From an uncultured Holophagales bacterium (GTDB lineage: Bacteria > Acidobacteriota > Thermoanaerobaculia > Multivoradales > UBA5704), in the NCBI GenBank assembly GCA_963842525.1, contig CAWJGT010000009.1, forward strand, positions 928,001 through 992,000: a stretch of 64,000 bases of DNA, in the 5' to 3' direction. Every line of letters starts with the position of its first letter. The first letter of the stretch is position 1. This document shows, piece by piece, positions 5,062-63,421 of the stretch. Both the position numbers and the translations under genes were made by a program. The notes below the pieces were generated by a model. The model made no database searches, was not told the DNA's origin, and saw nothing but the letters and a program-made list of their open reading frames with translations.

Positions 5062-5094
5062 GCGGGCAGGGGTCCTGCCCCGATTCTAGACCAA

Positions 5095-5127: not shown

Positions 5128-5136
5128 GAAGGATGC

Positions 5137-5226
5137 TCAGGTCTTCGGCGGATCGACCGGAGGCGGAGGGATCTCGTCGCGGACTGTGGTGGCTGCCTTC
5201 GGGTCGAAAATCGTATTGTCTTTCAT
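5137..5226 (-). CDS. Unannotated 29-aa Pro-rich peptide MKDNTIFDPKAATTVRDEIPPPPVDPPKT
   Basis: GGAGA RBS 6 nt before the ATG, conserved promoter-like motif upstream and hairpin downstream; same layout as the 8236..8391 ORF. Confidence 0.55.
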   Translation of the reverse strand: MKDNTIFDPKAATTVRDEIPPPPVDPPKT

Positions 5227-5294
5227 GACTGGTCTCCAGCGGAATCATCGGATTTCAAATTTTGTCGTTTCCTTCGCGGCTTGCGCCGCCCACA

Positions 5295-5332
5295 CATCTC
5301 CAGGAACGATGGGGATAGGGAGATTCCCTCAC
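5295..5332 (-). promoter_or_regulatory. Putative ECF sigma promoter GTGAGGG-N16-TCGTTCCTGGAGATG (copy 1)
   Basis: Two identical blocks with an identical 16-nt spacer also occur at 8443-8480; CGTT is a typical ECF -10 core. Confidence 0.6.
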
Positions 5333-31114: not shown

Positions 31115-31134
31115 GGTGCTTGCTTCTCCTGAGG

Positions 31135-37410: not shown

Positions 37411-37420
37411 GGGCGGGCTC

Positions 37421-44515: not shown

Positions 44516-46837
44516 TCACTGCGGCCGCAGCCGGCCGACGACGGCCGGAGTAATCCCAATCGCCTGGAGGTCGTCCAGCGATGAGAAGCTCCCCACCTCG
44601 TTGCGCCGCGCGAGGATACGGTCCGCCAGGGCCGGGCCGATGGTGGGGACGGTCAGCAGCTCCTCCCGCGTGACCGTGTTGAGGTCGAAGCCTCCGCGGA
44701 TGATCAAGCCGAGCCGGAATTCGGCCCAGCTCTCGAAGCGCCCTCCCTGGAGGCCGAAGACGGAGCCCGAGGGATGGCTGCCGGTGGTCAGCTCGCCGCG
44801 CAGGTGCTCGGCGTCGACCGCCCGGCCGCTCTCGTCGACGACGAAATCGCCGCGCAGCACGACGGTGAAGCGCGCCGGCTGCGCCAGGACGTCGTTGGAG
44901 AGGAGCGCGCGGTTGAAGACCAGGGCGGCGCCGGGCGCCAGCGGCCCGGGGATGCGCCGGGCGCTGACGATGAGCTGCCCCTGGAGCTGGATGTTGTCGA
45001 TCGGCACGACCTCGAGCGGGACGATGCGCAGTTGGTTGCGCAGCTCGCCCTGTCCCTCGCTGAAGAGCTGGAAGGTGTTGGCGTCCAGAGAGCCGGCGCG
45101 CACCACCACGCGACCGGTGAAACGCAGGGCGACCGCCGTGACCGTCTGGGTGTCCAGGACCAGGTTGAAGGAGCTGTTGCCGCCATGCGTCCAGCTCAGC
45201 GCGTCGATGCGCACCAGGTCGCTTTCGATGATCTCAACCTCCGGCGGCGGGGCGGCCGTGACAGGGAGCGGCGTCCACTGGTTGTTGAAGAAGGTCAGCA
45301 CCTCGTTCGGGTTGGGCGCCACGGTGGAGACGACACGGCCGCGCAACCCGGCCACCGTCGGGTTGGGGTAGGTCGTTGCCAGGTCGCCGCCGGCCGCCTG
45401 GCCGAACGTCAATGCCTGGCCGCTCGCCGTGGCCTGCGCGAGGTTGGTGATCCGGTTGTTGCCGGCGCTCAGGTTGCCGGTCAGCGCCCGGGTGCCGCTG
45501 GCCAGCAGGTACTGCGGATGGTCGTCGGCGCCGAGCCCGGTGAGGGCCGAGTGCGCCGTGACGCCACTGCCCCCCTGGGGCGGGCGTGGCATCCACTGGC
45601 CTTCGGAGAAGGTGAGCACCTGGTTCTCGTTGGGCTGCTGCGGGGAGACGAAGCGGCCTTGCAGACGGGTGACCGAGGGATTGGGATAGGTCAATCCCAG
45701 GTCGCCGCCGGCCGCCTGGCTGAACGGCATGGCCTCGCCCGCGTTCTGCGCCTGCGCGAGATTGTTGATCCGGTTGCCGCCGGCGCTCAGATTGCCGGAC
45801 AGCGCCCGGGTGCCGTTGGCCAGCAGGTACTGCGGGTGGTCGTCGGCGCTCAGCCCCTGGAGCTCGGCGTGAACGTTGACGTCCTCGATGTCCGTCGAGC
45901 CGGTCAGCATCTCCTGGAGCAGGCGGGTATGGAGGAGCACCGGCCGCCTGTCGACGGAGACCTGAGGGTCGCCGGTGAGGGCGAGGTCGTCATCGACGTC
46001 GAGGTCGAGGCGCGCGAGGAGCACGCAGTCCTCGGCCGGCTCGCCCGCGCAGCCGCCACCGGGGATGGCCGGCCGCACCTCGCCGACCCAGACCCGGTAG
46101 GCCGCGCGCAGGATGCGGCGGATGTCGTCCGGATGGACGTGGATGACGTCGCTGCCGGGCGGCGACTCCGGTCCGGCCGGAGGCGAGGCTTCCTCCAGGA
46201 GGCCGCGCACCAGATCCTCCATCTCCTCCTCTGTGATCTCGCTCGGCTGGTCTTCTTCGATGTCGATGCGGCCGAGCAGCTCGCCGAAGCGGCGCACCAT
46301 GTCCTCCTCGGCCTGGTCCGGCGGGTCGAGGGAGATCTCCAGCTCGAAGGACTCGGTGATGCGCGATGGCGCCAGGCTGTCCTCCTGCGAGCGGCAGGGT
46401 CCGCCCGGGATGGGCACCGGGTCGGTCTCGCAGTCGCGGAAGCAGAGCCGCACGTAGAGCGGCAGCGGCCCCGCCGCGGGCGGCGAGCCGAGGCGGCCGA
46501 GGACCTCCTCGCGATGGCGCAGCAGCCAGGCGCCGAGCTGCGCGCACTGCGCCTCGGGCACCCGCACCACGTTGCCGCGGGGGGTCACCGCGAGGCCGGG
46601 CTCGACCCGCACCTCGGTGTCGCCGCCGTCCGGCGCGGTCGAGACGCGGAGGCCGCAGGCCACGCCATAGCCGTGGAGCAGCCGGTTGTGCAGCTTGTCC
46701 CGTTCCAGGAAGTGGAGCTGTTCCTGCCGGAACTCGTCCTCTCCCAGCACGAGGCCGAGGGTGTAGTTGACCCGCTTGGCGGGGTCGAGCGTCCCGCGCG
46801 AGAGCGGGCTGGCGGTCTGGAAACAGGAGCAGGTCAT
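44516..46837 (-). CDS. eCIS tail-fibre-like protein with a duplicated 106-aa repeat and a C-terminal ComEA-like helix-hairpin-helix
   Basis: RVNYTLGLVL...EQ...LHGYGVACGLRV; two DDHPQYLL repeats; DLNTVTREELLTVPTIGPALADRI...GSFSSLDDL. Confidence 0.8.
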   Translation of the reverse strand: MTCSCFQTASPLSRGTLDPAKRVNYTLGLVLGEDEFRQEQLHFLERDKLHNRLLHGYGVACGLRVSTAPDGGDTEVRVEPGLAVTPRGNVVRVPEAQCAQLGAWLLRHREEVLGRLGSPPAAGPLPLYVRLCFRDCETDPVPIPGGPCRSQEDSLAPSRITESFELEISLDPPDQAEEDMVRRFGELLGRIDIEEDQPSEITEEEMEDLVRGLLEEASPPAGPESPPGSDVIHVHPDDIRRILRAAYRVWVGEVRPAIPGGGCAGEPAEDCVLLARLDLDVDDDLALTGDPQVSVDRRPVLLHTRLLQEMLTGSTDIEDVNVHAELQGLSADDHPQYLLANGTRALSGNLSAGGNRINNLAQAQNAGEAMPFSQAAGGDLGLTYPNPSVTRLQGRFVSPQQPNENQVLTFSEGQWMPRPPQGGSGVTAHSALTGLGADDHPQYLLASGTRALTGNLSAGNNRITNLAQATASGQALTFGQAAGGDLATTYPNPTVAGLRGRVVSTVAPNPNEVLTFFNNQWTPLPVTAAPPPEVEIIESDLVRIDALSWTHGGNSSFNLVLDTQTVTAVALRFTGRVVVRAGSLDANTFQLFSEGQGELRNQLRIVPLEVVPIDNIQLQGQLIVSARRIPGPLAPGAALVFNRALLSNDVLAQPARFTVVLRGDFVVDESGRAVDAEHLRGELTTGSHPSGSVFGLQGGRFESWAEFRLGLIIRGGFDLNTVTREELLTVPTIGPALADRILARRNEVGSFSSLDDLQAIGITPAVVGRLRPQ
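45269..45871 (-). repeat. Tandem 318-bp duplication in the fibre gene
   Basis: H..L.GL.ADDHPQYLLA.GTRAL.GNLSAG...TYPNP...QW.P occurs twice. Confidence 0.85.
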
Positions 46838-49722
46838 CTCGGGTTCTCCTGGAAACCGGAGGCGGCCGGGGACACGCCGCTGACACCGCCGACGCGATCG
46901 CGTCCGGCGACGAAGCGGTCCGGCTCGCCCCAGGGGTGGGAAGGCGGCAGATAGCTCTCGCCCAGATAGGCGCCGCCGAGCGCCAACGGCAACAGACGGC
47001 CGCCCTGGTCGACGGTCGTATCGAGCCCTACCCGCGCCTGGCCGACGCGGAACAGGGCCCAGAACTCGCGCACCTCGAAACGGGTGTGGGCCGGTTTTTC
47101 CCGCTCCACGACCCTCTGCACCAGCTCCAGCCGGCGCTGGCGTGCCACGGTGTCCTCGTCCACCGCCACCGGCACCAGCACGGTGAAGCGGTGGGCGTTG
47201 CGCCGCAACGGCAGGGCCGTGGAGACGAAACGGATCCAGTCGGCCAGCGGTGCGCCGGAGGAAGGCAGCTCGGCAGGCAGCGGCACGTCGGCGAAGGAAG
47301 CTGGAGCTGTCGATCCAGTCAGGCCCCAGGCCCGGTTGAGCTCGGAGATGCGGCGGTAGCGGTGGGCCAGGAAGGCGCGCCAGGCGGGTGCATCGCCGGC
47401 GCCGGCCGCGGTATAGGTGAAGCCGATCTCCCAGCGGGTGAAGCGCAGCCAGTCTTCGCGGCGGGCGTTATCTTCCGGGGGTGGCACGAGCGCCGGCAGG
47501 CGCAGCTCGGCGAAGCTCTGGTAGCTCGTGCCGCCCCAGGCCGCGTTCAGGGCCTCGATCTCCTCATGGACCCGCTGCAGATAGTCGCGCCAGAGCTGGT
47601 GGAGCGGCCCGGCGCCGAGCGCCGGGGTCCACGCCTGGCCGGCCGCCACCAGCCGCGGCATCTCCAGCTCCTCGGGGTCGCCCACGCTCACCCCGGGCTG
47701 CCCTCGGGTGAGGAAGCTCTCCAGGATGCGCACCGAGCGCCGCGTCGCCGCCACCCGCGGGTCGGTGACGTCCTCGGTGAACAGGCCGTCGTCCACGCAG
47801 CCGTCGAGGGCCAGGCGGAGCATGCGGATCAGCCCGGCGGTGGTGCCGCGCTGCTGGAACAGCTCCGGAGCGTGGCGCAGGAACAGGCGCTGGCGCGCCG
47901 CGTCCCAGGACGGATCGAGCTCGGCGCCCAGCCAGCCGGCGAGCCAGTCGAGGTATTCGCTGGCGTCGCGGTCCCACAGCTCCTGCGCCTGCTCGATGCG
48001 CCCTTCGAGCGTGGTGAAGATCCCCTCGACGTTGGCGAGGTAGCGGTCCAGGAACGAGGCCGAGGCCTCGTCCAGCCGGTAGGCCTGCGGCAGGTACTCC
48101 TTGAGGTAGGAGAAGCGCGGGTACCAGGCGCGCAGCGCCCGCACCCGCGGCGTGGCCCGCCGGTTGCCGGAGAAGGTCAGGCGGAGCTGGATCCAGCGCC
48201 CGCGGGCACGCTGGAAGAGCAGCTCCCACGTGCCGATACCGGCGGTCCGGCCGCGCCGCAGCTCCTCGGCGGACCAGACGCGGATGTACGGCAGCTCGGG
48301 CCCGCCGGCGCGCAGATAGGGGTCGGGCTCCCGCTCCCAGGGCAGGCCGGCGAGCAGGTCCGGCCGTTCGGCGGCGCGGCTCTCGACCGCCACCGCGGTG
48401 CCTTCGGGGATGCAGGCGTCGAGCAGCAGCCGGTGCCAGACGCACTCGGGGTCGCGGCCGTCGAGCGGCGCCGTGGTGAGCGACCCTTCGGTCAGGAAAC
48501 GGGGCCGCGGCGCCTCGGCGAGCGGCAGCCAGCGCTCGCCCGAGTCGTAGTGGGCACCACCCTCCGACGCATCCGGCCCGCCTCCTGCCACCAGGCCGCG
48601 TCCGCCGGCGCGCCGCATGGGGTAGTAGCTGCGCTGGAGCGTGAGCCGCAGCTCCTCGCCGTCCACCTCCAAGGCGAAGGCGAAGGACTGGTTGCCGTCG
48701 GCGCCGCCGAGGAAGAGCGTGCCCCGGACCTGATCGTGCGACAGGCCGGCGGCCGGCACGAAGGCGAGGTCGAAGGCGGTGAGGCCGGCCGTCCCCTCTT
48801 CGGCCGCTCCTTCGAGGGCGCGATCGAGCACGATCTCGGGACCCAGGAACCGGCCGCAGCGCAGGCGGTGGAGGCGCGACCACCCCTCGCCCGGCCGGGT
48901 CTCCAGGACCAGGACGCTGCCGTCCGGCAGGGCCTCGACCGCGGTGGCATGGATGGGCTCCGGCGGCGAGCCGAGCGCCAGAGGAACGCCCTGCGGGCGC
49001 GGCCGGCCGGCGCGGCGCCGGGGCGTCTGGCCGTGCGGCGCGAAGTCCCCTTCCTCGTCCACGCCCGGCTCGGGCTCGCCGAGCATGCGGAGGTGGCGGT
49101 CCAGGGTCCACAGGAGCGGCGGACCGTCCGGCGCAAGCTCCGCGGCGTCGAGAGGCCGGTCGAGGATGACGACGCCGCCCGCCGGCAGCGGCGCCATGTC
49201 GAACGGCTCGAAACGGTCGCCGGCCGGCCAGGGGAGCACGCTCAGGGGCGGACCGCCGGCGTGGAGGTCGAAGACCAGCAGGCCCGGCGGGTCGAGCACG
49301 CCGACGACGAGGTAGTGGTCGCAGGTCACGGCGAGACCACGCAGGCGCGGCTCCACGGTCGCCGGAGCTGGAGCCAGGGGCTGGAAACCGCTCTGTGGCG
49401 CCAGTGGGCAGACGGTTGGAGGAACCGGCCAGAACCGCTCAGAGGCTGTGGCGCCCGGAGGCAGGAAGCGGACCTCCCGCTCATCCCCTTCATCGGTGCC
49501 GATCCAGTACCAGTTGCCATAGCGGTCGCGGGCGGCGCCGCGGCGGTCCTCCAGGCGGGGCGGCCGGTCGCCGGGCGGCGTGGAGAAGCGGAAGAGCTGG
49601 GCCTCCAGCCCGACGCCGTTGCGCTCCTCGTCGAAGGCGAGGCCGCCGTCCGCAGGGAGCAGGGGCTCCCAGTCGCGCCTGCCCAGCAGGAGATGGAACC
49701 GCGTGCCGTTGACGTCGCCCAT
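46834..49722 (-). CDS. Baseplate wedge / P2 gpI-like tail protein
   Basis: YLPQAY...FLDRYLA, YLDWLAGWLG, RGTTAGL, EKPAHT; start MGDVNGTRF. Confidence 0.8.
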   Translation of the reverse strand: MGDVNGTRFHLLLGRRDWEPLLPADGGLAFDEERNGVGLEAQLFRFSTPPGDRPPRLEDRRGAARDRYGNWYWIGTDEGDEREVRFLPPGATASERFWPVPPTVCPLAPQSGFQPLAPAPATVEPRLRGLAVTCDHYLVVGVLDPPGLLVFDLHAGGPPLSVLPWPAGDRFEPFDMAPLPAGGVVILDRPLDAAELAPDGPPLLWTLDRHLRMLGEPEPGVDEEGDFAPHGQTPRRRAGRPRPQGVPLALGSPPEPIHATAVEALPDGSVLVLETRPGEGWSRLHRLRCGRFLGPEIVLDRALEGAAEEGTAGLTAFDLAFVPAAGLSHDQVRGTLFLGGADGNQSFAFALEVDGEELRLTLQRSYYPMRRAGGRGLVAGGGPDASEGGAHYDSGERWLPLAEAPRPRFLTEGSLTTAPLDGRDPECVWHRLLLDACIPEGTAVAVESRAAERPDLLAGLPWEREPDPYLRAGGPELPYIRVWSAEELRRGRTAGIGTWELLFQRARGRWIQLRLTFSGNRRATPRVRALRAWYPRFSYLKEYLPQAYRLDEASASFLDRYLANVEGIFTTLEGRIEQAQELWDRDASEYLDWLAGWLGAELDPSWDAARQRLFLRHAPELFQQRGTTAGLIRMLRLALDGCVDDGLFTEDVTDPRVAATRRSVRILESFLTRGQPGVSVGDPEELEMPRLVAAGQAWTPALGAGPLHQLWRDYLQRVHEEIEALNAAWGGTSYQSFAELRLPALVPPPEDNARREDWLRFTRWEIGFTYTAAGAGDAPAWRAFLAHRYRRISELNRAWGLTGSTAPASFADVPLPAELPSSGAPLADWIRFVSTALPLRRNAHRFTVLVPVAVDEDTVARQRRLELVQRVVEREKPAHTRFEVREFWALFRVGQARVGLDTTVDQGGRLLPLALGGAYLGESYLPPSHPWGEPDRFVAGRDRVGGVSGVSPAASGFQENPR

Positions 49723-49724
49723 CC

Positions 49725-51973
49725 TCAGCACTCCTCCGGGACTACGGGCACGGGCACGCGGCGGGGTCCGCCGGGTGCGGCGGGCGCCGGGCCGGCCAGC
49801 TCGGAGAGCGGCGCCGGGTCGCCCGCCTGGACCGACAGGGCGGCGAGGCGCGGCAGCTCCAGGCCGGCGAGGTCGATGCGGTCGGCGGGCGTCGGCCCGC
49901 CGCGGCCGAGCAGCACACCGGTGACTTTGGCGACGCCGTCGACCCGCGCGGCGACCGCCCACAGCTCCAGGGCCTCGACCGGGTTGGACAGCGGCCAGCC
50001 GGTGCCGTCGCGCCCGCCTTCGAGCGGGGAGAGGAAGCGGCGCAGCTCGCGCTTGACCGCCTCGCGCGCCCCGGCCTGGTCGCGGCCGGCCACCACTTCA
50101 ATGCCGACCGACAGCCAGACCGGCACGTAGACCGGGCCGCTCACCCACAGCTCGGTGGTGACCAGCCGGCGCGGCGACAGGTAGGCGCACAGGGTCTCCA
50201 GGAAGCGCGCGTCCGGCTCCGGCGCCTCCGGATGGAGCGGGTCGAAGCGCGGGATGACCATCAGCGTCACCACCCCCTCGGCCGGCGTATCGGGAGCGTC
50301 GGGCTGGAACAGGGGCAGCACCTCCACGCGGCCGACGTCCACGCCGGGAGCGCGGCGGGCGATCTCCTCGAAATCGCGCTCCGACACCAGCCGGTCGCGG
50401 TGGCGCAGGGTCTGCGGGATGCGCTGCTCGGCGTCGCGCACGGTCTCGGCGTCGGCGCCGCCCCAGGTGGGGACCGGGTTGGCGACCTGCATGCCGGCCG
50501 GCAGGCTCGTCCCCTTGCTGACCGCGCCGATCCCGACCATGCCGGCGCGCCCGCCGCCGAAGTCGTAGCTCGCCTGGATCACCGCTCCCGCCGTGGGCCG
50601 GGCGCCGCGCAGGCCGTCGCCAAAGCGCACGGCGCCGGTGGCGCGGTCGACGGTGAACGCCCGCGCCGCCGCCGGATCGGCCCCATCACTCCCACCCCGG
50701 AGACCCCAGGAAACATCTCCCAGCGGCACCTCGGGCGCCGCCAGGCGGAGGTCCTCCACCTCGCGCCACGGCTCACCGCCGACGCTGAGCGAGACGCTCC
50801 CGGGGAGCACCGGCGTGTTGGCCAGGCGCAGCTCCTGGTCGGGCTCGCCCGTGCCGCGGCCGAGCACCTCGCCGGCCACGTGGGCACGCTGCACGACCCG
50901 TGCGGCGTTGATCCCGAGCCAGCTCAGACGGCCCGACGGCCTGCCGGTGTCCGAGGCAGTTCCCGACGGCGCCCGCAGGCCGACGCGGAGCCAGGTCACA
51001 AGGCGGTCGGCCAGGGAATCCTCGGCCAGCGCCGGCGGGAAGTCGCCCGTGCCCTCGTCCTGCGGCTCGAGGTCGTCCCACAGCCGCAGCCGTTCGGCGC
51101 CGGGGAGCGGCAGCTCCACGATCCCCGGCTCGTCCAGCAGGTCGCCGCTCGACCGGGCGTCGAGCGGGTCGAAGCGAGCCACCCGCTCGCCCGACGGACC
51201 CAGGTCGTCGCGGCCGGTGGGCCGCGGCAGCGACCAGGTGAGGGAGGGCTGGGCGCCGGCCTCCACGCGGCCGCCGGGCGGCAGCTCGCGGGCGCCGCCT
51301 GGGGCGGCCGGTACGACCCCCAGGGTCAGCACCTGGCCGGCGATGGCGTGCCGCGCCGCCTCCACGTCGGCCGGCGAGCGGGCGAAGAGCGCCACCCAGA
51401 GCGAGCCGTCCACGGTGCTCCCCAGGTCGAGCTTCCGGGGGGAGCGCGCCGGATCGCGGCGCCGGGAGCTTCCCGCGTCTCGTAGAAGGCGAGCACGGAG
51501 CCTTCGCCGGTCAGCGCCGCGAAGAGCTGGTCGTAGAGCGACCGCACCTCGGCCTCGCGGTCGCCGGGCAGCTCGGCCTTGTAGAAGACCCGCGACTCGA
51601 CCGGCAGCACGGCCAGGCCGTCGACGGTGCGGAACGGCACCTGGCCGGCGGTCAGCTCCAGGTCCGGCGGCAGCACGCGGGCCTCGACCGCGCCGCGCAG
51701 GTTGGAGAACGCCACCAGCCCCCGCGCCGCCTCGGCCGGCTGCAGCGGGATGCCGAGGAGGTTCAGGAACTTGATGCGGTTGCGCTCCGGGATGCGGTTG
51801 GCGCGGTAGAGCAGGCTCTCCGTCATGAAGGAGAAGAGCTGGAGGAGCGTGACGCCCGGGTCGGCGTCGTTGAAGTTGGTCCATTCCGGCAGGTGGACCG
51901 GGATGCGCGCCAGCGCCTCTTCCAGGATCTGGCGATAGGTGCGGTCGTCGAGGACCGGTTCGGTCAGGGCCAT
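49725..51973 (-). CDS. Baseplate J-like protein (Afp11-like); frameshift at about 51435-51475
   Basis: LDDRTY...PEWTNFNDADPGVTLLQLF; FGDGLRG; GGADAET; RDRLVSERDFE. Confidence 0.88.
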
Positions 51974-51987
51974 GGTCTCTCTTCTCC

Positions 51988-52389
51988 CTAGCCCGCCAGG
52001 CGGACGCTCAGGTCGATGCGGTCGGACGATCCGGTCGCGACCAGGGCATAGCGGATGGTGACCGCCGCCGACTGCACGGTGGTCGCGTCGGTCGCGTCGG
52101 CTTCGACCGTCACCGACTCCAGGCGGATGCGCGGCTCCCACAGCGAGAGCGCGCGGACGATGCGTTCCTCGATCAGCCGGTGGGTCGCCACCGTGTTGGG
52201 TTGGAACAGGAACCGGGCGAGGCCGGCGCCGAAGTCGGGCAGCAGGATCCGCTCGCCGGGCTCGGTGAGCAGGATGATGCGGATGGCCTCGCGGATGTTC
52301 TCCGGGCCGACCGAGAGGGCCACCCGGCCGTCCGGCCCCAGCCTTGGGGGGAACGCGAAACCCTGTCCGAAGATGCGTGCCTCGTCCAT
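51988..52389 (-). CDS. GPW/gp25 baseplate protein (Afp9-like)
   Basis: G.GFAFP, IREAIRIILLTEPGERILLPDFG, WEPRI. Confidence 0.92.
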   Translation of the reverse strand: MDEARIFGQGFAFPPRLGPDGRVALSVGPENIREAIRIILLTEPGERILLPDFGAGLARFLFQPNTVATHRLIEERIVRALSLWEPRIRLESVTVEADATDATTVQSAAVTIRYALVATGSSDRIDLSVRLAG

Positions 52390-52392
52390 CGC

Positions 52393-53982
52393 CTAGCTCG
52401 CCTTCAGCTTGAGAGGCAGGCAGATCCGGAAGAACGGGATCCACCAGAACACGATGTTGAGGACGAAGACGATGATCAGCAGCAGGATGAGGGCGCAGAT
52501 GGTGATGATGGGGATGGACAGCGAGCAGATCATCCCCAGGCTGAAGCCGCCCTCGTCGCCGACGTCGCCGTTGTCCAGGTCCTCCAGCTTGATCCCCTGG
52601 ATGCGCGACATCTGGCGCCGGAGCTGGTCGGAGATTAGGAAGGAGACGGCGCGCGGGAACTTGCGCAGCCCCTTGATGCTGGTGTCGACCGGCATCTGGA
52701 TGCGGATCTGGCGGGCCGGCGCGTCGGGGTCGAAGAAAGTGGCGAGCTGGAAGGCCTGGCTCGGCGCGCTCACCGCCGGCGGATGGATGCCCGCGCAGAC
52801 CGGCCGCTCGTAGACGCACCGCACCACGTAGAGGGCGCCGGCCGACGGGTCGAGCTTGGGCACCGCGGGCACGGCCGCCGCGGGCGGGTCCGGGATCTGG
52901 GCAGAGTCGAAGGCCGCGATCACCGCCGCCTTCAGCGCGTCCGCTATGGGTGCAGGCTGGAAAACGGCGTTGCGCAGGTCGTACATGGGCAGGCTGGGAT
53001 CCGCGCCGGACTCCAGGATCTCGGCCCGCCGGTCGTCCACCTCGCGCAGGGCCTCGGACCAGGTCGAGCCTCCGACAGAGTCGGTGCGCAGGCGCGTCCA
53101 GAGGTCGCGCCTGGGTCCCGTTAGCGAGCTTGTGTTGAACGGCAGGGCGTTCCACACCGTGCTGGCGTGGGTCCGGAGGTATTCGGCCAGATCGAGCAGG
53201 ATGAAGAGCGACGTGGTCCGGGCGAGATCCGTGCCGCTGGCCGTCAGCGGGATGTCCGCCAGCTCGCGCAGCGCCCCGATCACCCGTTCGTCGAGCTCGT
53301 GGTGCCGCGGGTCACCGAGGTCGTCGCCGGGATCGGCGATCGGCGACAGCTCCGGCCCCGCGGCAAAGGTCTCGCGGCTCGCGGCCGGCACCAGGCCGAA
53401 GAGGAGGCGGCGCGGGTGGCCGTTGGCCTTGAAGCTCAGCGGGAAGAGCGGCAGGCGCTCCTCGCCGGGCAGGACGGTTGGAACACTCGCATCCTGCACA
53501 GGCCGCCATCCCTGGCCGGGCACCCAGCCGTGCTCGCGGAAGGTCGAAGGCACGTTGGGATTGACGGTGCCATCCGCCACGGCCGGCACCAGGCGGCGCA
53601 GCACGAACGTGGTGGTCTCGCCGGCCCCGGCGTCGATCTTCCGGTCGGGGAAGCCCGGGGTGCGGCAGACCAGGCTCGCCGTCACGAGATAGAACCGGCC
53701 ATGGACCGGCTGGTAGAGCTTGAGCGTGCGGGCGAGCAGAGGGTCGCCCGGCTCGAGCCAGCCGGCGCCGGGATCGCGCCAGGTCTCGGGGTGCGCCACC
53801 AGGCCGGCCAGGTCCGGCGCCGCCGTGGCGAGGCGCGCCTGCACCTGCTCCATGAAGTCGTCGCCCGCCAGCCGGAGCAGCGCCGGCCGCCGGAAGCGGT
53901 CGGCGACGGGAGCGGACACTCCTCCCTGTAACGCCCGGTTCCACAGCGGCTGTGCCGTCAACCATTCGATCGGATGCATCAC
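52393..53982 (-). CDS. Uncharacterised eCIS protein with a C-terminal transmembrane segment
   Basis: 529 aa; ends ICSLSIPIITICALILLLIIVFVLNIVFWWIPFFRICLPLK; lies between spike and gp25. Confidence 0.75.
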   Translation of the reverse strand: MMHPIEWLTAQPLWNRALQGGVSAPVADRFRRPALLRLAGDDFMEQVQARLATAAPDLAGLVAHPETWRDPGAGWLEPGDPLLARTLKLYQPVHGRFYLVTASLVCRTPGFPDRKIDAGAGETTTFVLRRLVPAVADGTVNPNVPSTFREHGWVPGQGWRPVQDASVPTVLPGEERLPLFPLSFKANGHPRRLLFGLVPAASRETFAAGPELSPIADPGDDLGDPRHHELDERVIGALRELADIPLTASGTDLARTTSLFILLDLAEYLRTHASTVWNALPFNTSSLTGPRRDLWTRLRTDSVGGSTWSEALREVDDRRAEILESGADPSLPMYDLRNAVFQPAPIADALKAAVIAAFDSAQIPDPPAAAVPAVPKLDPSAGALYVVRCVYERPVCAGIHPPAVSAPSQAFQLATFFDPDAPARQIRIQMPVDTSIKGLRKFPRAVSFLISDQLRRQMSRIQGIKLEDLDNGDVGDEGGFSLGMICSLSIPIITICALILLLIIVFVLNIVFWWIPFFRICLPLKLKAS

Positions 53983-53994
53983 GTTTCCTCGTCC

Positions 53995-54711: not shown

Positions 54712-54713
54712 GC

Positions 54714-55799
54714 TCAGGGCCTCCCCAGGTTGGGCCGCTCGACGGCGAAGCGGGTGCGGTAGCCATGGAGGGCATCGAACGTCTGCCGCACCTCGGTGAC
54801 GTAGTACTCGCCTTCAAAAAGAGACCCGACGGATTTGAGGTCCACCCGCGTGCCGACCCGGATGCGCGCGTCGCCGTCCGAGATCCCCTGGCCGGTCAGG
54901 AACCGGCGGGCCATGCCGCGGAAGCGCGCCTTGGCCAGGCCGTCGGCCTCGCCGGGGGTGAGCGAGACGAGATGGACGATGCGCTCCGGCCGGTCGCCGA
55001 AGGCGCTCTTGAGGACCTTGGCGCCCGAATCGCCGCCGTTCAGCTCGGACTGCACCGCGCTGTCCGAGGCTTCGCCCTTGATCCCTTCCTTGGCGGCCAC
55101 ATCCCAGCCGGATACGGTGAGGCTGGTGCGCTGGGCGGCCAGGTCGGCGAGGACCGAGAATTCGCGCAGCGTGCGGCCGTACTCCAGCGACACCTGGCCG
55201 GCGTTGCGGCGCGCCCGTGCCTGGGCGTGCAGGGTGGCGCCCTCGACCCAGACCTCGGCGTCGGCGGCGCGCGCCCGCTCGCGCAAAAAGGCCAGGTCGC
55301 TCTGGTTGACCTGGGCGAGCACGGTATGGGTCGGCCCGTCGAGGTCCACCTGCGCCGTGAGGCCGTGCTTGGAGGCGATGAAGCGCGCCACGTCGGCGTC
55401 GCTCGAATCCTCGTAGGTGCGGCTGCGGCGGGTCATGCGCAGGTCCTGCAACCGGTCCTCGGCGAGCACGGCGATCTCCGGCGGCCGGCCTTCGGGGAAG
55501 TGGGCTTCGAGGCCGGTGACCTTCCCCGTGAAGACCTTGGCGGCGGCATCGCCGTCGCCCATGTCCACCTCCAGCGGCTTGCCGAAGTCGAAGGCGGCGC
55601 GGTCGAAGAAGAGGAAGCCGGGAGCGCCGTCCTTGGTCCCCCAGTTGCCGAACACCGCCTCGCAGCGGTAGAGGCCCGCCGTGGTCTCCTCGACGACCAG
55701 CGACAGCAGACCGTCGACGAGGCCCGGCTGGTCGCGGCCGTCCAGGCGGAAGCGCGGGCGGGCGCTGTAGAGGGCCGAGGTGGGGAGGAACGGCGGCAT
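54714..55799 (-). CDS. Hub protein, phage late control D/gp27-like (VgrG N-terminal part)
   Basis: FTGKVTGLEA, SDADVA..IA, QVNQSDLAFLRERA, FEGEYYVTEV. Confidence 0.88.
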   Translation of the reverse strand: MPPFLPTSALYSARPRFRLDGRDQPGLVDGLLSLVVEETTAGLYRCEAVFGNWGTKDGAPGFLFFDRAAFDFGKPLEVDMGDGDAAAKVFTGKVTGLEAHFPEGRPPEIAVLAEDRLQDLRMTRRSRTYEDSSDADVARFIASKHGLTAQVDLDGPTHTVLAQVNQSDLAFLRERARAADAEVWVEGATLHAQARARRNAGQVSLEYGRTLREFSVLADLAAQRTSLTVSGWDVAAKEGIKGEASDSAVQSELNGGDSGAKVLKSAFGDRPERIVHLVSLTPGEADGLAKARFRGMARRFLTGQGISDGDARIRVGTRVDLKSVGSLFEGEYYVTEVRQTFDALHGYRTRFAVERPNLGRP

Positions 55800-55811
55800 G
55801 CTCTCGTTCTC

Positions 55812-55998
55812 CTAATGCGCCCGCAGCCGGGTCGGTGCGCGCGGCTTGATGGCGCAACAGGTTGCGCAGCTCTTCGAGGCTGAGGGACGGCGGTGAGGCG
55901 GCGCGGCGGCCTCCCGTCCGGCCGGCCCGGCGGCGCCGCGGCGCCTCGCCGGCCGGCGGCGCGGCCACGACATCCAGCTCGTTGATGATCACGCCCAT
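55812..55998 (-). CDS. Small eCIS protein (about 61 aa); 1-nt frameshift near 55830
   Basis: MGVIINELDV start; removing one C gives ...RLRAH*, immediately before the RBS of the hub gene. Confidence 0.55.
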
Positions 55999-56016
55999 GC
56001 AGTCAGGTCCTTCCGC

Positions 56017-56741
56017 TTAGCGCCTGCCGCCGCCGGGGCTCAGCAGGCCCGGGAGGACGGCGCGGGTTGTCCACGTTGTTGGCTTCGGCGAGGGGGCGCC
56101 AGTTCTCGGCTTGGCCCTGGCGGCCGGCCACGCCCTGCACGGTCTCGCCCTGCCGCACCGGCTCCTGCGGCGTGCGGCCCGGAGCGCCCTGGCCACCCGC
56201 CCCGCCGGCGCCTGCACCGCTTCCGGGGGCGCCTGGCAGGTCGCGGATCTCTCGCTGAATGTCCTGGCTGAGCAGGCTGACCGAGACCTTGGAGCGCAGC
56301 GGCCGGCCTTCTTCGGAGAAGAGCTTCCAGGCTCTCGTTGAGCGACTCCATGATCCCGTCGAACAGGAAGCTCCCCCAGGCGAAGCGCACCCCCGGCGGC
56401 ACCGGGTTCTTCTGCTTGGGGTCCTTCTTCGGCGTGATGAAGTAGGAGACCTCGCGGGTGAGCAGGCGCACGTCGTTGGGTGCCCCCGGCGCGCGGTCGT
56501 CCGGATCGACCGTGACGTCGAACCAGAGGTCGAGCGTCAGCTTGGTGGTGCTCTTGGAGACGAACTGCACGGCCGCCTTCTTGCCCTGGTCGCCGCCGCC
56601 GAGCTGGTTGCTGTAGGCCACCTTCAGGCTGTCGGGGTTGAACTGCACGCGCACCTTCTTCTCCAGCTCGACCACCTGCTGGTTGTTGTCCCACTTGATC
56701 TCCTGCAGCTCGGCCTTGGCGATGGTCTGCGGCTCGGGCAC
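56017..56741 (-). CDS. Tube initiator (Afp7-like) with a C-terminal LysM-like domain; several frameshifts
   Basis: VQFNP, PPGVRFAWG..LFDG; in shifted frames GRPLRSKVSVSL and VRQGETVQGVA...WRPLAEANNVDNPR. Confidence 0.75.
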
Positions 56742-56765
56742 GGTCGATCTCTCCCCCTTTAGGGC

Positions 56766-57233
56766 CTAGGCCCCGGGCGGCACAAGCTGCAGCCGCTCGT
56801 AGGCGATGTTCATCTCTTCGATGGCGATCTGGCCGTCCTTGGCGTTCAGCGCCGGCATCCTCAATTTGGTCGGCAGGCAGCCGGTCAGGGTGAAGGTCAG
56901 CGCCCGCTCGCGCACCCGGTCCTGCGGCAGCAGCACCACCTGGCCGAAGGCGCGGATGCCGCGCGTGTCGCGGCGCAGCACGCGGTCGAACCACGCCCAG
57001 AGGTCGAGCGTGCGGGTGACGCCGCGCTTCAGAACGAGCTGGCCATAGGCCGTGGGGCCCAGCAGGTGGATGGGCCGCGAGTTGTTGCCCCCTTCGCGGA
57101 TGGTCTGCGGCGTCATGGTCACTTCCAGGCCGTCGCACTCGGAGAACTCGGCGTTGCAGAAGATCTGGCCGCCGGGGACCTGGAGCTCCACCAGGAAGTT
57201 GAAGGTGGAGAAGGGGCGCTCGATCTCGGCCAC
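56766..57233 (-). CDS. Tail tube protein (T4 gp19-like, Afp5 type)
   Basis: FNFLVE, FSECDGL, REGG, LVLKRG, IAIEEM.IAYE. Confidence 0.92.
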   Translation of the reverse strand: MAEIERPFSTFNFLVELQVPGGQIFCNAEFSECDGLEVTMTPQTIREGGNNSRPIHLLGPTAYGQLVLKRGVTRTLDLWAWFDRVLRRDTRGIRAFGQVVLLPQDRVRERALTFTLTGCLPTKLRMPALNAKDGQIAIEEMNIAYERLQLVPPGA

Positions 57234-57235
57234 GC

Positions 57236-60071
57236 TCAGGCCTCCTCCAGGAACGGCGGCTCCTGGCCTGCCTGGACCAGGCGCACGGTGAGGAAGGCCA
57301 GCGGGCGCGACGGCGCCACCCGCAGCTCGACGACGAAGCGGCCCAACTCGGCGGTGCCCGGCGGGTTGACCGAGGAGTCGATCACCACGCGGTAGGCCTC
57401 GGCGGGCGTGGCGCCGGTGAAGGCGCCGCGGATGTAGAGCCCGGCCAGCACCTGGTCGAACCGCCGCCAGACGCGGCGCCGGAAGGTGTCGTCGTGCGGC
57501 TCGAAGACGTAGGTGGTCCCCTCGCGCAGCGCCAGCCGGCGGAGCAACGACAGCAACCGGCGGACGTTGACCGGCCGCACCTCCGCGTCATTCGCTGAGC
57601 GTGTCCGCCGAAAGGGCTAGAAAACCGCGCGGGTCGGAGCGCAGCAGGTTGACGCGGACGTTCAGGAGGCGCGCCCAGGAACGGGTGCTGAACGGCGGGT
57701 CCAGGGCCACCACGTCGCGCAGCGGTACGTTGGCCGGCGCGATCCAGGCGCCGCGCGATCGCGCCAGGGCTGCATAGGTGCCGCCGACCGCACCTTCCGG
57801 AGGAGCCCAGAGGGCCTCGCCGCCTGCCGCCACCCCCACCCCCCCAACACCCCGCCGGGCGATCCACGGGTGATAGAGGGCGCCATAGCCGAGCACCGGC
57901 CGCTCGCCGTCGGTGAAGAGCGGCACGCCGCCGGGAGCGAGCAGCGGCACGCCGGCCACAGCCTCGGGCGCGGCGCCGGGGGTCAGATGCGTCAGGTGGT
58001 CCAGCGCCTCCTCCTCGCGGAACGAGCGGGGGAGCGCGAGGAGCGCCAGCAGGTCGCCGCGCGCGCAGCAGAAGCGCAGCAGCGCCCGTTGCACCGCGGC
58101 CAGGACGGTGGCGTCACCGTCGCCCTCGCTGGAGGTCGTCATCCGCCAGGCCGTGGGCGGGGGCGCCGAGCGTCGCAGGGTGATCGACCATGGGCCGCTT
58201 TCGCCATCCCGCACGGCGCGCACGCGGTAGAGGAGCGTCCGTGCCGGGGGGCCGGAGAACCGGTGGGATGTGCCGGAGGCGATGCGGGTCGGGCGGGCGT
58301 CGGCGAAGGACGGATCGGCCGACTCTTCGACGACATAAGCGGTCGCACCAGGAACGCCGGCCCAGAGGAGGACGTCGCCCTCGGGCGGCGAGCCGTACGG
58401 CTCCAGGTGCGGCTCCGGCGTTGCCAGCGGCTCCTCGTCGCAACGGACGAAGGGCTCGGCGGGCAGCACGGCGCGGACGGTGTTGGACCACGGCCCGGCC
58501 TCGCTGCCGCGGTCGGCCCGCACGCGGAACCAGCGCGCCGCGGGACAGGCGACGGGCGGGGGCACATCGAGGAGAAGGCCGGCGATCCCATCCCAGCTCC
58601 GCACGGCGCGGCCAAGGCCGGCATCGTCCCCCTCCTCGACCCGGAAGGTCACGTCCGCCGGTCCCGTCCAGGTCCAGGTCAGGTCCACGCCTTCATCGGA
58701 TTCCGGCGCGGCAACGAGCACCGGCGCCGGCAGCTCGGGCGTGATCTCGGGCGTCTCGCGCTCCCAGCCGGCATGGACGGCATCGGGCACTGCCAGCAGG
58801 CTGACCTCTTCCAGGGGAAGGAGCGCGTGGAGCCCGCCGAGGTCTTCGCCGACCACATACAGCCGGTGGTTGGCCTCGGCGAGGAGCGAGCCGGCGCCGA
58901 GCTGGGCGAGCCGCCGGTCCAGGAAGAGAAGGGCGCCGAAATTCGCCAGGCCGTCGCGCTCCAGTGCCGTGTCCGGCGAAGCGTCCGTGGACGGGCCGCG
59001 GGCCGCGTCCGCCGCAGGGGCCGACGGCATGGCGACGGGCAGATAGAGAGGCGCCGGGTCGTCCGGGCCGGCGAAGGGGAAGCGGGGCGTTGCGGCATCC
59101 CTGGCCAGCGGCCCGCTGGCGGGCACGCCATGGGGCGGCGCCGCCAGGAGCCCGGCGTCGGTAGGCAGGCCACCCCAGAAGCGCGGGTGGGCGGCGGCGA
59201 AGCCGAGCCGGCTGAGCCGGGCGCGCAGCCCGTCACCTTCCCAGGCCAGCAGCTCGAAGGTGAGCCGGCGCACCGACGGCACCCCCGCGAGCGGCGGGCT
59301 GGCCAGGCGGATCGCCTCCCACAGCGCCAGACCGTCGGTCTCGGAGATCGGGATCAGCCGCCGCAGGCCGGGCTCAAGGGCCGACGGCGGCGAGCCCTGT
59401 AGCTCCGGCAGCGCCCAGAACCCCTGGCTGGAGGTCAGCAGCAGGCCGCGCCGCCGGGGCTCCGGCTGCGTCACGGCCTCGACCGGCAGGAAGAGGACCG
59501 GGCCCTGATCGTTGATGGGGTCGAAGTCGAGCTCCAGGAGGTCGCCCGGAGCGGCGCCACCGGGCGGCAGGGAGAGGTACAGGCGGTAGTCGTTGGGAGC
59601 GGCGGAGAACGGCTCGCCCTGGGAGGGATCGAGCGGCAGCCCCTCGCGGTCGAGCACGGCGCCGGCGCGCAGGCGGTCGGCCCAGCTCCCCTCGGCGCGG
59701 GCGCGTGTTTCGGCCGGCTCCCAGGAGTCGGCCCGCACCAGGCCGGGCACCGGAAAGCGCTGGGTGCTCGCTCCGGCGCCGGCTACCCGCACCACCCAGC
59801 AGCGCCGGCCGCCGTTGCGGAAGAAGTCCTCGACCGCGGCGCCCAGGTGAGCGGTCTGCAGCCGTCCGGTTTCGGCGTCCCAGGCGAGCGGCGCGTCGCC
59901 GCCGAACAGGTCGCGAAAGCGCGCCGCGTCCTCCACCGCCACCGGCATCCCCACGGGGCCGGCGGCGGCGAAGCCCACGAACGCCGCCACGTCCATGCGC
60001 GGCAGGGCACGCTCCGCGGCCGGTGGCTCGGCCCGGAACCGGACTCCTGGCAGCTCCGCTTCGAGGATCAC
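57236..60071 (-). CDS. Sheath protein 2 with two inserted FN3-like domains; frameshift near 57590
   Basis: RMDVAAFVGFA..GP, FF.NGG.RCWVVRV, YGALYHPW, APAN, VNVRRL, VFEP. Confidence 0.85.
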
Positions 60072-60084
60072 CGCGGCCTCCGCC

Positions 60085-60544
60085 TCACGTGGTCTCCAGC
60101 ACGATCCGCTCGGAGGCCAGGACGAGCTCCTCGATGGCCACGTCCGTGCCCTTGCCGTTGAGCGCCGGGCCGGTGTACTTCATGGGCCGCGCGTTCTTGA
60201 GCTTCCCACTTGACCGCGGTCTCCGACCGGTCCTGGGTGAGCAGCTCGATCGTCACGTCCTTGAGGGCGTCCTGGGCGCCGTTGCGCACCTCCTCCAGCC
60301 ACTGGTAGAGGTTGGTCGCGCCGATGACGCCGCGCTTGAGCGTGATGTCCGGGGTCTTGTACGTGCCGGTGATCTTCATCGGCGCGTTGTCCTTGAAGTT
60401 GCCGGCGCGGTATTCGGCCACGGTGATCTCCATGCCGAGGCCGCTGATCTCCTGGAAGCCGGCCTTGACGTCCGTGGCGTCAAGGCCTTCCCAGCTCACC
60501 AGGAAGTTGAACTGGCTGTAGGGGCGGTCACGTTCGATGGCCAT
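60085..60544 (-). CDS. Tail tube protein (gp19-like, Afp1 type); frameshift near 60207
   Basis: FQEISGL, EYRAG, ITLKRG; the shifted frame continues WKLKNARPMKYTGPALNG...VAIEELVL. Confidence 0.88.
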
Positions 60545-60561
60545 CGTCTAGCCTCCTCGGG

Positions 60562-62490
<1,929 letters not shown>

Positions 62491-62512
62491 TGCGGTCTTC
62501 CTCCTGATCGGG

Positions 62513-63421
62513 TTACGGGGGCGAGCCCGCTGCTTCGACGAGCAGCTCGGGCCGGCCGGAGGTGCGCAGCACCAGCTCGCGGCCGTAGGCCAGCTCGGCC
62601 TCCAGCTCCGGGATGGTGGGGCCGGCATCCGGCCACAGCCGTGCCGGCTCCTGGTGCCGGATGGCGCGCAGGTCGGGCACGCCCCAGGCGACGGGTTGAG
62701 TGGGAAGCCCGGGTGACCAGCGCACCCGGGCGGTGAGGTGCCAGCGCTGCCCCGCCAGCGGCGGGAACGTGCCGTTGGGCGGCGACGTGGCGATCGTGCC
62801 GGTGACGGTAGGCCAGGGGAGGAGCACGGTCACGCTGCCGCGGCGGTCGGCCAGGCCATACCAGCGGTCGCCCCCCTCCAGCTCCAGCTCCAGCAGCGCA
62901 TGCGCCGCCGGCGCCGGTGCACCATCCGGCCCGCTGCTGTCCGCGTCGGCGAGCTGGGCCCGCACCACGGCCAAGCCGGGGCCTGCCGGCCGGTTGGGGG
63001 ACGAGAACAGATAGCAGCGCGCCGATGCCGCGGACAGCGGGCTCGCATCGAGCCCGGGATTCCACGGGCCGCGGTAGGGGAGCGGCAGGTCCACCGCGAA
63101 CGCCACGGGCAGGAAGCGGCGCCGCGCGTCCTCGACGCTCACCAGGAAGCGCACCGAGAGCGGCTCCGGCGGGCTCGCCAGCAGCTCGGTATCATCGTCA
63201 GAGCGCTCCAGGGCGCGCAGGCCCGGCAGGCCGTGAAAGGCCCACAGCCCGCCGGCGGTGCGCACGGCCGTGCGCTCGGGCCCCACGCCGTCGGCGCGCC
63301 GCGCCCGCACCAGCAGGCTGTCGCGCACCTGCTCGTCGAGAGCGGGGTCCCAGAAGCGGATGCCCAGGAGCGTCCGTACGGTGAGCTCCTCCAGGACACG
63401 GACGTCGACCAGAGGCTCCAT
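62513..63421 (-). CDS. Conserved hypothetical eCIS protein (beta-sandwich-like)
   Basis: Clean ORF between the cap and sheath genes with tight spacing. Confidence 0.65.
   Translation of the reverse strand: MEPLVDVRVLEELTVRTLLGIRFWDPALDEQVRDSLLVRARRADGVGPERTAVRTAGGLWAFHGLPGLRALERSDDDTELLASPPEPLSVRFLVSVEDARRRFLPVAFAVDLPLPYRGPWNPGLDASPLSAASARCYLFSSPNRPAGPGLAVVRAQLADADSSGPDGAPAPAAHALLELELEGGDRWYGLADRRGSVTVLLPWPTVTGTIATSPPNGTFPPLAGQRWHLTARVRWSPGLPTQPVAWGVPDLRAIRHQEPARLWPDAGPTIPELEAELAYGRELVLRTSGRPELLVEAAGSPP

Follow-up and report, generated by a model that had tools for sequence, protein, structure and literature searches.

A recurrent Ser-Pro-Pro motif in the structural proteins of an extracellular contractile injection system as a candidate O-glycosylation sequon

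Extracellular contractile injection systems (eCIS) are phage-tail-type particles that are being engineered as protein-delivery devices, for which surface chemistry decides stability, targeting and immune recognition. Here, we consider a 64,000-nucleotide stretch of DNA (the window) from an uncultured Holophagales bacterium (contig CAWJGT010000009.1, positions 928,001 to 992,000), in which a complete eCIS operon encodes several structural proteins sharing a Ser-Pro-Pro (SPP) motif and ends with a cassette of glycosyltransferases (GTs) and methyltransferases (MTs). The locus resembles the Afp/PVC-type eCIS in having the same gene set, from the cap to the DUF4157 payloads, and differs from those systems, as they appear in the literature searched, in its conserved GT/MT cassette and in the Ser-Pro-Pro motif of its outer proteins. 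Within the reach of full-text literature searches, neither glycosylation of eCIS structural proteins nor a bacterial sequon of the Ser-Pro-Pro type was found to be described, and glycosyltransferases have 0 occurrences in the main text, as available, of a 2024 paper on eCIS toxins (PMC11297309).

Glycosylation of phage-tail-type particles does have a precedent in mycobacteriophages, where phage-encoded GTs glycosylate capsid and tail-tube proteins; the phages named are Che8, Corndog and Myrna and the GTs Che8 gp110 and Corndog gp38 (PMC12363180, citing Freeman 2023). The likeness to the present locus lies in the type of particle, in a gene cluster of its own with soluble GTs and in a proposed cytoplasmic modification before release. 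The differences are that an eCIS is not a virus, that the proposed targets here are the fibre, the sheath, the spike and an Ig-like protein, and that the modification, like its defined Ser-Pro-Pro motif, is a proposal here. Mycobacteriophage glycosylation clusters also hold a methyltransferase.

The general O-glycosylation systems of bacteria use sequons such as D-(S/T)-(A/I/L/V/M/T) in Bacteroidota or, for the PglL type, Ala/Pro/Ser-rich segments, and their glycan is built on a lipid carrier and transferred in the periplasm by an oligosaccharyltransferase. The eCIS sites are like theirs in being short Ser-containing motifs in exposed low-complexity segments of many unrelated proteins, and unlike them in the motif itself, in the cytoplasmic nature of the substrates and in GTs that lack a transmembrane (TM)-like segment. 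No oligosaccharyltransferase-like domain was reported among the open reading frames (ORFs) submitted to Pfam from the window and from other loci. Two features of sequon systems are nonetheless found here, namely GTs genetically linked to their candidate substrates and an enriched, conserved motif in exposed segments of several unrelated proteins. One protein of the window also recalls the OGT-type GTs in joining a GT domain to tetratricopeptide repeats (TPRs). Unlike that of OGT, its catalytic domain is a GT2 (GT-A) domain, matched by Glycos_transf_2, and not GT41 (GT-B), and its TPRs are C-terminal rather than N-terminal; as only these TPRs match OGT, and SPINDLY, weakly (E about 1e-4), an OGT-like TPR-GT41 identity was rejected. 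The GT2-TPR fusion was not seen in the other loci examined and is particular to this window.

An original prediction, made from the letters of the window, held that 11 SPP motifs recur across unrelated eCIS proteins and that they sit in loop-like positions, and proposed that they are acceptor sites for the operon's GTs. All 11 motifs were found, ten of them in confident ORFs and one in a small ORF, and the SP(L/I) variants that had been remarked upon in sheath 1, itself devoid of SPP, are also present. The proteins concerned and their sites (aa, amino acid; GC3, GC content at third codon positions) are as follows.

62513..63421, minus strand: 302-aa protein with a tandem beta-sandwich (Ig-like) fold (AlphaFold); ASPP at 63167-63175 (aa 83), TSPP at 62777-62785 (aa 213), GSPP at 62516-62524 (last three residues)
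60562..62628, minus strand: sheath 1 (Pfam; sequence match to solved sheaths); TSPI at 61942-61950 (aa 227), SSPL at 61822-61830 (aa 267)
57588..60071, minus strand: sheath 2, N-terminal and insertion part (Pfam; frame by GC3); GSPP at 59385-59393 (aa 227), ASPP at 59292-59300 (aa 258), GSPP at 58383-58391 (aa 561)
57236..57580, minus strand: C-terminal domain of sheath 2, in a different frame and without SPP (Pfam Phage_sheath_1C)
55801..55998, minus strand: small ORF 5' of the hub gene, with its start at 55998; ASPP at 55888-55896
46834..49962, minus strand: baseplate wedge protein with Tail_P2_I and a GH42-like region (Pfam); GSPP at 48961-48969 (aa 332)
44516..46837, minus strand: fibre or peripheral baseplate protein, weakly CIS13-like, with a TssK-like N-terminal domain and a C-terminal HHH (Pfam, NCBIfam, Foldseek); GSPP at 46478-46486 (aa 118), ASPP at 46178-46186 (aa 218), ESPP at 46157-46165 (aa 225)

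The background against which these sites should be read was taken from the whole 9.95-Mb genome with a crude codon-usage gene caller (6454 ORFs, 2.53 million aa, 76% coding), so that the rates are approximate. SPP occurs 538 times in this proteome, or 0.213 times per 1000 aa, and from that rate the 15 eCIS proteins would be expected to hold 1.3 SPP and 0.35 [GA]SPP where 10 (Poisson 1.3e-6) and 8 are observed; among 5988 blocks of 15 consecutive genes, a single one is as dense in SPP. The comparison with the proteome background thus came out as had been anticipated. Given that eCIS proteins are Pro-rich, shuffling each protein is a fairer control, and here 2.6 SPP were expected, with at least 10 reached in 3 of 20000 shuffles, and 0.57 [GA]SPP, with the observed count reached in 0 of 20000. 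At least three SPP are found in eleven proteins of the genome; the fibre, the 302-aa protein and sheath 2 are among them, and the remaining eight have lengths of 654 to 5629 residues. The contrast that had been drawn with the CHAT, permease, cytochrome and NRPS proteins, in which a single SPP unrelated to repetitive extragenic palindromic (REP) DNA was said to occur, has to be corrected, as 3 SPP occur in the 12091 aa of the window's 17 other proteins. The motif is written in its commonest codons (GGC TCG CCG CCS), and these ordinary preferred codons, together with the GC3-confirmed frames, rule out an origin in REP or other DNA-level repeats. Off-frame translations of the window are SPP-rich (about 1.4 per 1000 codons, estimated from the listed off-frame matches), and for sheath 2 and the 302-aa ORF the frame profiles and orthologs rule out that the motifs come from mis-framed ORFs.

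The evidence that carries most weight is comparative. From 250 relatives, 80 syntenic loci of species-representative genomes were retrieved by aligning the hub protein, each with 10 kb of flanking DNA to either side or as much as the contig held. They come from more than ten phyla, among them Acidobacteriota, Chloroflexota, Rhodothermota, Myxococcota, several Proteobacteria, Verrucomicrobiota, Planctomycetota, Gemmatimonadota, Nitrospirota, Deinococcota, Actinomycetota and Poribacteria, and cultured carriers among the relatives include Roseithermus sacchariphilus MEBiC09517, Halochromatium glycolicum DSM 11080 and Myxococcus eversor AB053B. Orthologs of the 15 eCIS proteins were sought in 81 loci, with one duplicate dropped (L008 = L068), by blastp to stop-to-stop ORFs, and were counted from the first aligned residue to the stop, which excludes upstream read-through. 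Across these loci SPP is observed 558 times, 3.92x the 143 that the composition of the individual proteins predicts, compared with 1.23x for TPP, 0.97x for PSP, 1.87x for PPS, which overlapping arrays inflate, and 0.39x to 1.52x for the 18 other xPP tripeptides. The residue before the Ser is preferentially G (2.9x), A (1.9x) or S (1.9x), and that after SPP is mostly A, G, S or E, with Pro at 0.9x. The GC content of the loci spans 54-75%, and the existence of SPP-rich loci at moderate GC, such as L050 with 22 SPP against 2.7 expected at 57% GC, argues that the enrichment is not a GC artefact. The distances between successive SPPs peak at 4 residues (31 cases) and 5 residues (17 cases), as in tandem xSPP units, and 65 distinct site clusters can be recognised in six families, a few of them widespread and most lineage-specific. 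The counts are distributed over the protein families as follows.

fibre: 147 SPP observed, 12.7 expected
302-aa protein: 130 observed, 14.5 expected
sheath 1: 64 observed, 9.6 expected
sheath 2: 123 observed, 26 expected
spike: 20 observed, 4.8 expected
hub: 12 observed, 1.8 expected
wedge: 27 observed, 18.8 expected
Baseplate_J: 4 observed, 18.8 expected
gp25: 0 observed, 1.6 expected
233-aa tube protein: 5 observed, 7.8 expected
529-aa protein of no assigned family (unk529): 23 observed, 22 expected

The enrichment of the spike comes almost entirely from one cluster, and that of the hub from one site in 11 loci and another in 1 locus. This distribution fits the exterior of the particle, with the fibre, the 302-aa protein, both sheaths and the spike enriched and the tube, gp25 and Baseplate_J not, and the SPP-bearing parts would, judging from known CIS architecture, face outward once the particle is assembled. 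Taken on these comparative counts, (G/A/S)-Ser-Pro-Pro, with weaker SP(L/V/I) variants, is a selected, Ser-specific short linear motif.

Individual sites can be followed in orthologs at 33-45% identity whose flanks are variable. Of the ten sites of this genome four are strongly conserved, three partly, and three not conserved as SPP. In the fibre, SPP is found in 35/50 orthologs at aa 225, in 30/50 at aa 218 and in 11/50 at aa 118, and many orthologs have tandem xSPP arrays in the 218-225 stretch, with eight units in L074, followed by a conserved DF(M/L)(F/Y)G-SPP. In the 302-aa protein it is found in 29/50 orthologs at aa 213, in 11/50 at aa 83 and in 22/50 at the C-terminus, the last within a conserved ...TPA(G/A/V)SPP* tail; this protein is present in 5/61 close-relative genomes (G000 among them), at 43-45% identity and with the same motifs in the same places. 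The site at aa 227 of sheath 2 has SPP in the same column in 16/62 orthologs, and in 26/62 within -6..+8 residues of it. The Ser is near-invariant, being present in 45/51 rows at fibre aa 225 and 44/51 at aa 213 of the 302-aa protein, with Thr in at most one. Orthologs of sheath 1 have SPP clusters at about reference positions 227 (14 loci) and 231 (15 loci), so the TSPI at aa 227 of sheath 1 aligns with SPP in orthologs, which fits the earlier remark on SP(L/I) variants.

Predicted structures bear out the loop-like positions that had been proposed, since two AlphaFold models put the conserved sites in loops or tails at a pLDDT of at most 70 within folds above 90. The 302-aa protein is modelled as tandem beta-sandwiches (pLDDT 87, pTM 0.84); the sequence blocks that hold its SPP sites average a pLDDT of 70, 65 and 61, and the sole segment below 50 contains an ASPL. 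For residues 1-330 of the fibre (pLDDT 86.7), residues 220-226, between the conserved SPPs, fall below 50, and SPP118 sits in an ordered loop; the top Foldseek matches of this part are baseplate chains of the Anabaena CIS (7b5h) and TssK. In sheath 1, which matches solved CIS sheaths (9ezm at 2e-104, Afp3 at 1e-42, Pvc2 at 5e-40), residues 181-293, the stretch in which its orthologs carry SPP, remain unaligned to the closest of these, 9ezm. The 302-aa protein has no Pfam or NCBIfam family match, and Foldseek returned adhesin- and pilin-like beta-sandwiches at low TM scores only, so that an identification by fold was rejected.

Having established that the motif is enriched and placed in flexible segments, we considered the enzymes that accompany it. 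The cassette and the TPR gene before it read as follows.

30068..31444, minus strand: TPR protein between the effector and the GT cassette (Pfam)
28288-29991, minus strand: GT2 (Pfam)
26560-28233, minus strand: GT2 with TPR (Pfam)
25375-26553, minus strand: MT with GT25 (Pfam)
24149-25378, minus strand: GT (DXD) with MT (Pfam)

The four GT/MT proteins have no TM-like segment. They are also without the eCIS_core (DUF4157) domain, which marks the payloads of eCIS loci (PMC11297309). Searches of the GTs against Pfam, PDB sequences and NCBIfam gave generic GT-A/GT2 matches only, all below family cut-offs, and no more specific name could be assigned. GT2 orthologs were sought with 28288-29991 as the query at E <= 1e-12 (with the neighbouring GT2, 26560-28233, for the first five genomes), and a strong match was obtained in 54/75 genomes, with weak matches only (about 1e-14) in two further ones. 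In the 14 other genomes checked by coordinates these orthologs lie 3' of the hub gene on the same strand, and in the first five distant genomes the best match was 24-33 kb downstream of the hub, past the AAA ATPase and payloads, and at the operon end in 5/5. The GT region of distant loci contains MT-GT2 fusions or MT neighbours (Pfam), and in most loci the last part of the operon is a soluble GT2 cassette, usually accompanied by an MT. A second type of GT (Glyco_trans_1_2 with GT2, with or without MT) was found in 5/20 of the GT2-negative genomes searched and closes the operon in L066, L068 and L053, and in G049 a GT1/Capsule_synth protein stands in place of GT2.

Some GT2 orthologs contain in-frame stops (2 in G068, locus L059, which counts among the 54; 3 in G121; 2 TGA in G106, G092 and G063; 1 each in G098 and G102), which may reflect decay of the genes, gene boundaries or errors of assembly. 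A pentapeptide-repeat protein is encoded 5' of the GT genes in two unrelated loci (L094:17409-18449 and L106:6486-7478); in G120 it directly precedes the GT gene, and in G063 a 245-aa ORF separates the two.

Whether the motif travels with the GTs was the comparison that the original prediction had called for. Among the 65 loci with at least 1 SPP expected, and with enrichment defined as an observed/expected ratio of at least 2.5 (a threshold of our own choosing), 42 loci have a GT and are enriched, 9 have a GT and are not, 4 lack one and are enriched, and 10 lack one and are not (Fisher p 2.7e-4, uncorrected for kinship). The pooled observed/expected ratio is 4.35 with a GT and 2.14 without, or 1.39 after removal of five uncertain negatives. 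In a FastTree phylogeny of the concatenated hub, spike, gp25 and tube proteins, loci that are both GT-less and SPP-poor occupy at least five separate places (L037, L043, L010, the Salinibacter/Salinivenus clade and L069); SPP is at about the expected level there, the motif having been lost at conserved sites with the loops kept, and no GT is found in the readable downstream DNA of L037, L043 and L010. The raw table therefore differs in the direction foreseen, and it is the phylogenetically independent comparison, given below, in which the difference does not reach significance. With kinship among the loci, exceptions in both directions and incomplete genomes to consider, the coupling can only be described as suggestive.

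Since soluble GTs and methyltransferases are the only accessory enzymes that travel with the locus, O-glycosylation is the most economical explanation for the motif, and we tentatively put the chance that SPP is a cytoplasmic O-glycosylation sequon at a little short of even. On this proposal the Ser of (G/A/S)-Ser-Pro-Pro in the particle proteins would receive an O-linked sugar in the cytoplasm, either ahead of assembly or while it proceeds, and the enzymes would be the soluble GT2-type GTs from the operon end, usually fused or adjacent to methyltransferases. The released particle may then bear glycans, possibly methylated, on its surface, where they could serve in shielding, in solubility or stability, or in target binding and recognition. 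It may also be that tandem arrays and rapid site turnover adjust the glycan coat that would cover the fibre, the sheath, the spike and the Ig-like decoration protein, in a manner similar to the evolution of glycan shields in viruses. The action of the GTs on the motif, Ser as the modified atom and the purpose of the glycan are what we infer from the Ser specificity, the flexible loops and tails of outer components, the site turnover, the arrays and the soluble, conserved GTs, with all of which a role of Ser-Pro-Pro as GT acceptor is consistent; in independent pairs the link to the GTs is not significant. The broader picture, of a widespread, horizontally spreading eCIS lineage coated with O-linked and probably methylated glycans on a new sequon through GT2-methyltransferase enzymes, is held with somewhat greater reserve still.

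A number of observations weigh against this interpretation. Because the loci are kin, only 7 independent pairs could be formed, of which about 3.5 go in the predicted direction, 1.0 in the opposite one and 2.5 show no difference (p about 0.4), an underpowered comparison; site-by-site Fisher tests likewise give the predicted direction with odds ratios of 2-4 and p of 0.08-0.48. GTs are present and SPP nearly absent in L026 (1 observed, 1.8 expected), L071 and L088 (0) and L017 (1), where L026 keeps GSPV, GSPL and GSPF at the conserved sites. In the other direction, L025 is SPP-rich and neither GT type was found in it, its downstream region having been read, and the same result came from the searches of the SPP-rich L018, L042 and L021; as many of the genomes are incomplete metagenome-assembled genomes, the absence of a GT may be an assembly gap. 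Three of this genome's own sites fare poorly in orthologs, with SPP in 1/62 at aa 258 of sheath 2, in 0/62 exactly (9 nearby) at aa 561 of the same protein, and in 1/59 at aa 332 of the wedge, where many have SPL instead. In a scan of tripeptides seen at least 4 times in the eCIS proteins of this genome, SPP ranks second, behind PGA (composition-corrected p 3.9e-4), and with about 8000 possible tripeptides this genome taken alone fails multiple-testing correction and is not decisive. Finally, the nearest named relatives of the GTs, at scores far below cut-offs, are makers of polysaccharides (WcaA, TuaG, heparosan and chondroitin synthases).

Several of these points would be expected if the motif were purely structural, that is, if SPP gave the surface loops and linkers rigid spacers or hinges of polyproline-II form, selected for mechanics or assembly and left unmodified, with the GT/MT cassette serving a polysaccharide, self-protection of the producer's surface or particle release. 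The position of the sites in loops and linkers of variable length, the polysaccharide enzymes nearest to the GTs, the loss of significance after phylogenetic pairing and the exceptional loci (L025 on the one side; L026, L071 and L088 on the other) all favour such an account. It leaves unexplained, however, why Ser is preferred over Thr (3.9x for SPP, 1.2x for TPP), why PSP stays at 1.0x, why G or A precedes the Ser and why an SPP is conserved at the very end of a protein; moreover, GT-less loci retain the loops yet change their sequence, and GTs without a TM-like segment would be unusual for polymerising synthases. We regard it as unlikely on balance, though as an explanation that must be taken seriously. 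The simplest alternative of all, that the motif is a chance or compositional product of Pro-rich, high-GC proteins, can draw on the second rank of SPP in the single genome and on the off-frame SPP rate, but it is very hard to reconcile with a 3.9x enrichment that survives composition correction in 80 other loci, including those at 56-58% GC, with conserved positions, with flat PSP, TPP and other xPP counts and with GC3-checked frames, and we give it hardly any weight.

The remaining alternatives assign SPP another partner or another enzyme. It may be that the motif is a docking peptide by which the outer components are recruited by one assembly factor, chaperone or TPR protein, as the original prediction had also suggested; this would suit a short linear motif that lies in disordered segments and at a C-terminus, a frequent binding site of TPR domains, and the window does encode a TPR protein and a GT2-TPR fusion. 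When downstream ORFs of 8 other motif-bearing loci were submitted to Pfam, however, no TPR domain was reported, and for this reason TPR docking is not a general explanation; arrays of up to eight units and rapid turnover would also be unusual for a single docking site, which together make it improbable. Ser-Pro is the classic context of proline-directed kinases, and Ser-Pro-Pro repeats recall plant extensin glycomodules, so a further possibility is phosphorylation or an extensin-like, hydroxylation-based modification of the Ser by an enzyme encoded outside the operon. Neither a kinase nor a prolyl hydroxylase domain was found in any operon ORF scanned, though, a host enzyme common to more than ten phyla is unlikely for a locus that moves horizontally, and it is GTs and MTs alone that travel with it as accessory enzymes; we judge this slightly more improbable again. 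The kinase version in the original prediction is not supported, given the same lack of a kinase domain in the scanned operon ORFs and the unenriched TPP (1.23x), which gives no sign that Thr is accepted, and proline-directed phosphorylation sites were rejected as an identity for the motif on these grounds. An extensin-type Ser-(Hyp)n glycomodule was rejected as well, with no 2-oxoglutarate-dependent oxygenase or prolyl 4-hydroxylase domain in the ORFs scanned and with Pro, of which such a module has runs of four or more after the Ser, at 0.9x after SPP.

Were the O-glycosylation reading to be confirmed, no contractile injection system would have been known as glycosylated before this one, and Ser-Pro-Pro would be a new bacterial sequon for cytoplasmic O-glycosylation whose enzymes are also in hand. 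The assembly of eCIS would then include a modification step, and the presence of non-payload GT cassettes in these operons would be explained.

The operon itself runs on the minus strand throughout, from 64049 down to about 24149, in a window of about 71% GC, and its gene models rest on GC3 and codon-usage scoring. It begins with a Pvc16-like cap, the 302-aa protein, sheath 1, a tube protein, sheath 2, two tube proteins and the small ORF, continues with the GPD hub, the Phage_base_V spike, the 529-aa protein, gp25, Baseplate_J, the P2_I-like wedge and the fibre, and then with a second weakly CIS13-like protein, an outer-membrane beta-barrel protein, a 775-aa protein and the AAA ATPase, before ending in the 1331-aa eCIS_core (DUF4157) payload, the TPR protein and the four GT/MT proteins; a non-ribosomal peptide synthetase follows. 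Pfam matches in 44516-64049 (minus strand) comprise Pvc16_N, two sheaths, three tube proteins, the GPD hub, the Phage_base_V spike, gp25, Baseplate_J, Tail_P2_I and the fibre with HHH. All core parts of an eCIS are thereby matched (Phage_sheath_1/1C, Phage_T4_gp19 twice, CIS_tube, GPW_gp25, Baseplate_J, Tail_P2_I, Phage_base_V and Phage_GPD), and the accessory set of cap, AAA+ ATPase (Afp15-like) and DUF4157 payload is also present.

63423-63998, minus strand: cap, Pvc16_N (Pfam)
35286-37337, minus strand: AAA ATPase (Pfam)
31135-35130, minus strand: payload, eCIS_core (Pfam), the only coding-scored part of a longer open frame

Some of the gene models merit comment. Sheath 2 is split across two frames, its 827-aa ORF stopping at a TGA and Phage_sheath_1C resuming as a 114-aa ORF, with the switch near 57581-57616; GC3 supports one frame over the full length of the 827-aa ORF, and the sheath 2 orthologs of L006 and L008 are single ORFs, so that either a frameshift mutation or an assembly error is involved. 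The small ORF (54814-55998, minus strand) opens with MGVIINELDVV, has no stop for 394 codons and overruns the hub gene in another frame, which could reflect a lost stop or an indel; its N-terminus is weakly like ORFs of 62-73 aa in the same place in L022, L039, L048, L052 and L042 (E 5e-4 to 6e-3). The payload gene lies within a 2199-codon open frame (31135-37734, minus strand) that overlaps the AAA ATPase gene (35286-37337) in another frame, and as the coding score is confined to 31135-35130, this illustrates how long spurious ORFs become at such GC.

Downstream of the fibre, a 524-aa protein (42908-44482, minus strand) weakly matches the NCBIfam model (CIS13 family) that the fibre also hits, at 2.3e-8 and far below the cut-off, is 33-41% identical across six loci and has zero SPP in this genome; judging from its sequence, it is probably another protein of the fibre type. 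A gene that follows the fibre genes and precedes the AAA ATPase (39615-41915, minus strand) encodes a protein of about 750 aa with a signal-peptide-like N-terminus and a C-terminal outer-membrane beta-barrel, which is kept in some distant loci, including G049 (L007:16412-18664) and G063. The payloads 3' of the AAA ATPase are varied in other loci (L092:9904-13185, L095:4429-5418, L104:5416-8316 and 4940-5410, L103:4042-6717), with an APOBEC-like deaminase domain, a Tle1-like phospholipase, and an eCIS_core-colicin-DNase/WHH protein with a SUKH immunity gene among them. A GT-less Gallionellaceae locus has a thermolysin-like peptidase and an amidase downstream of its AAA ATPase.

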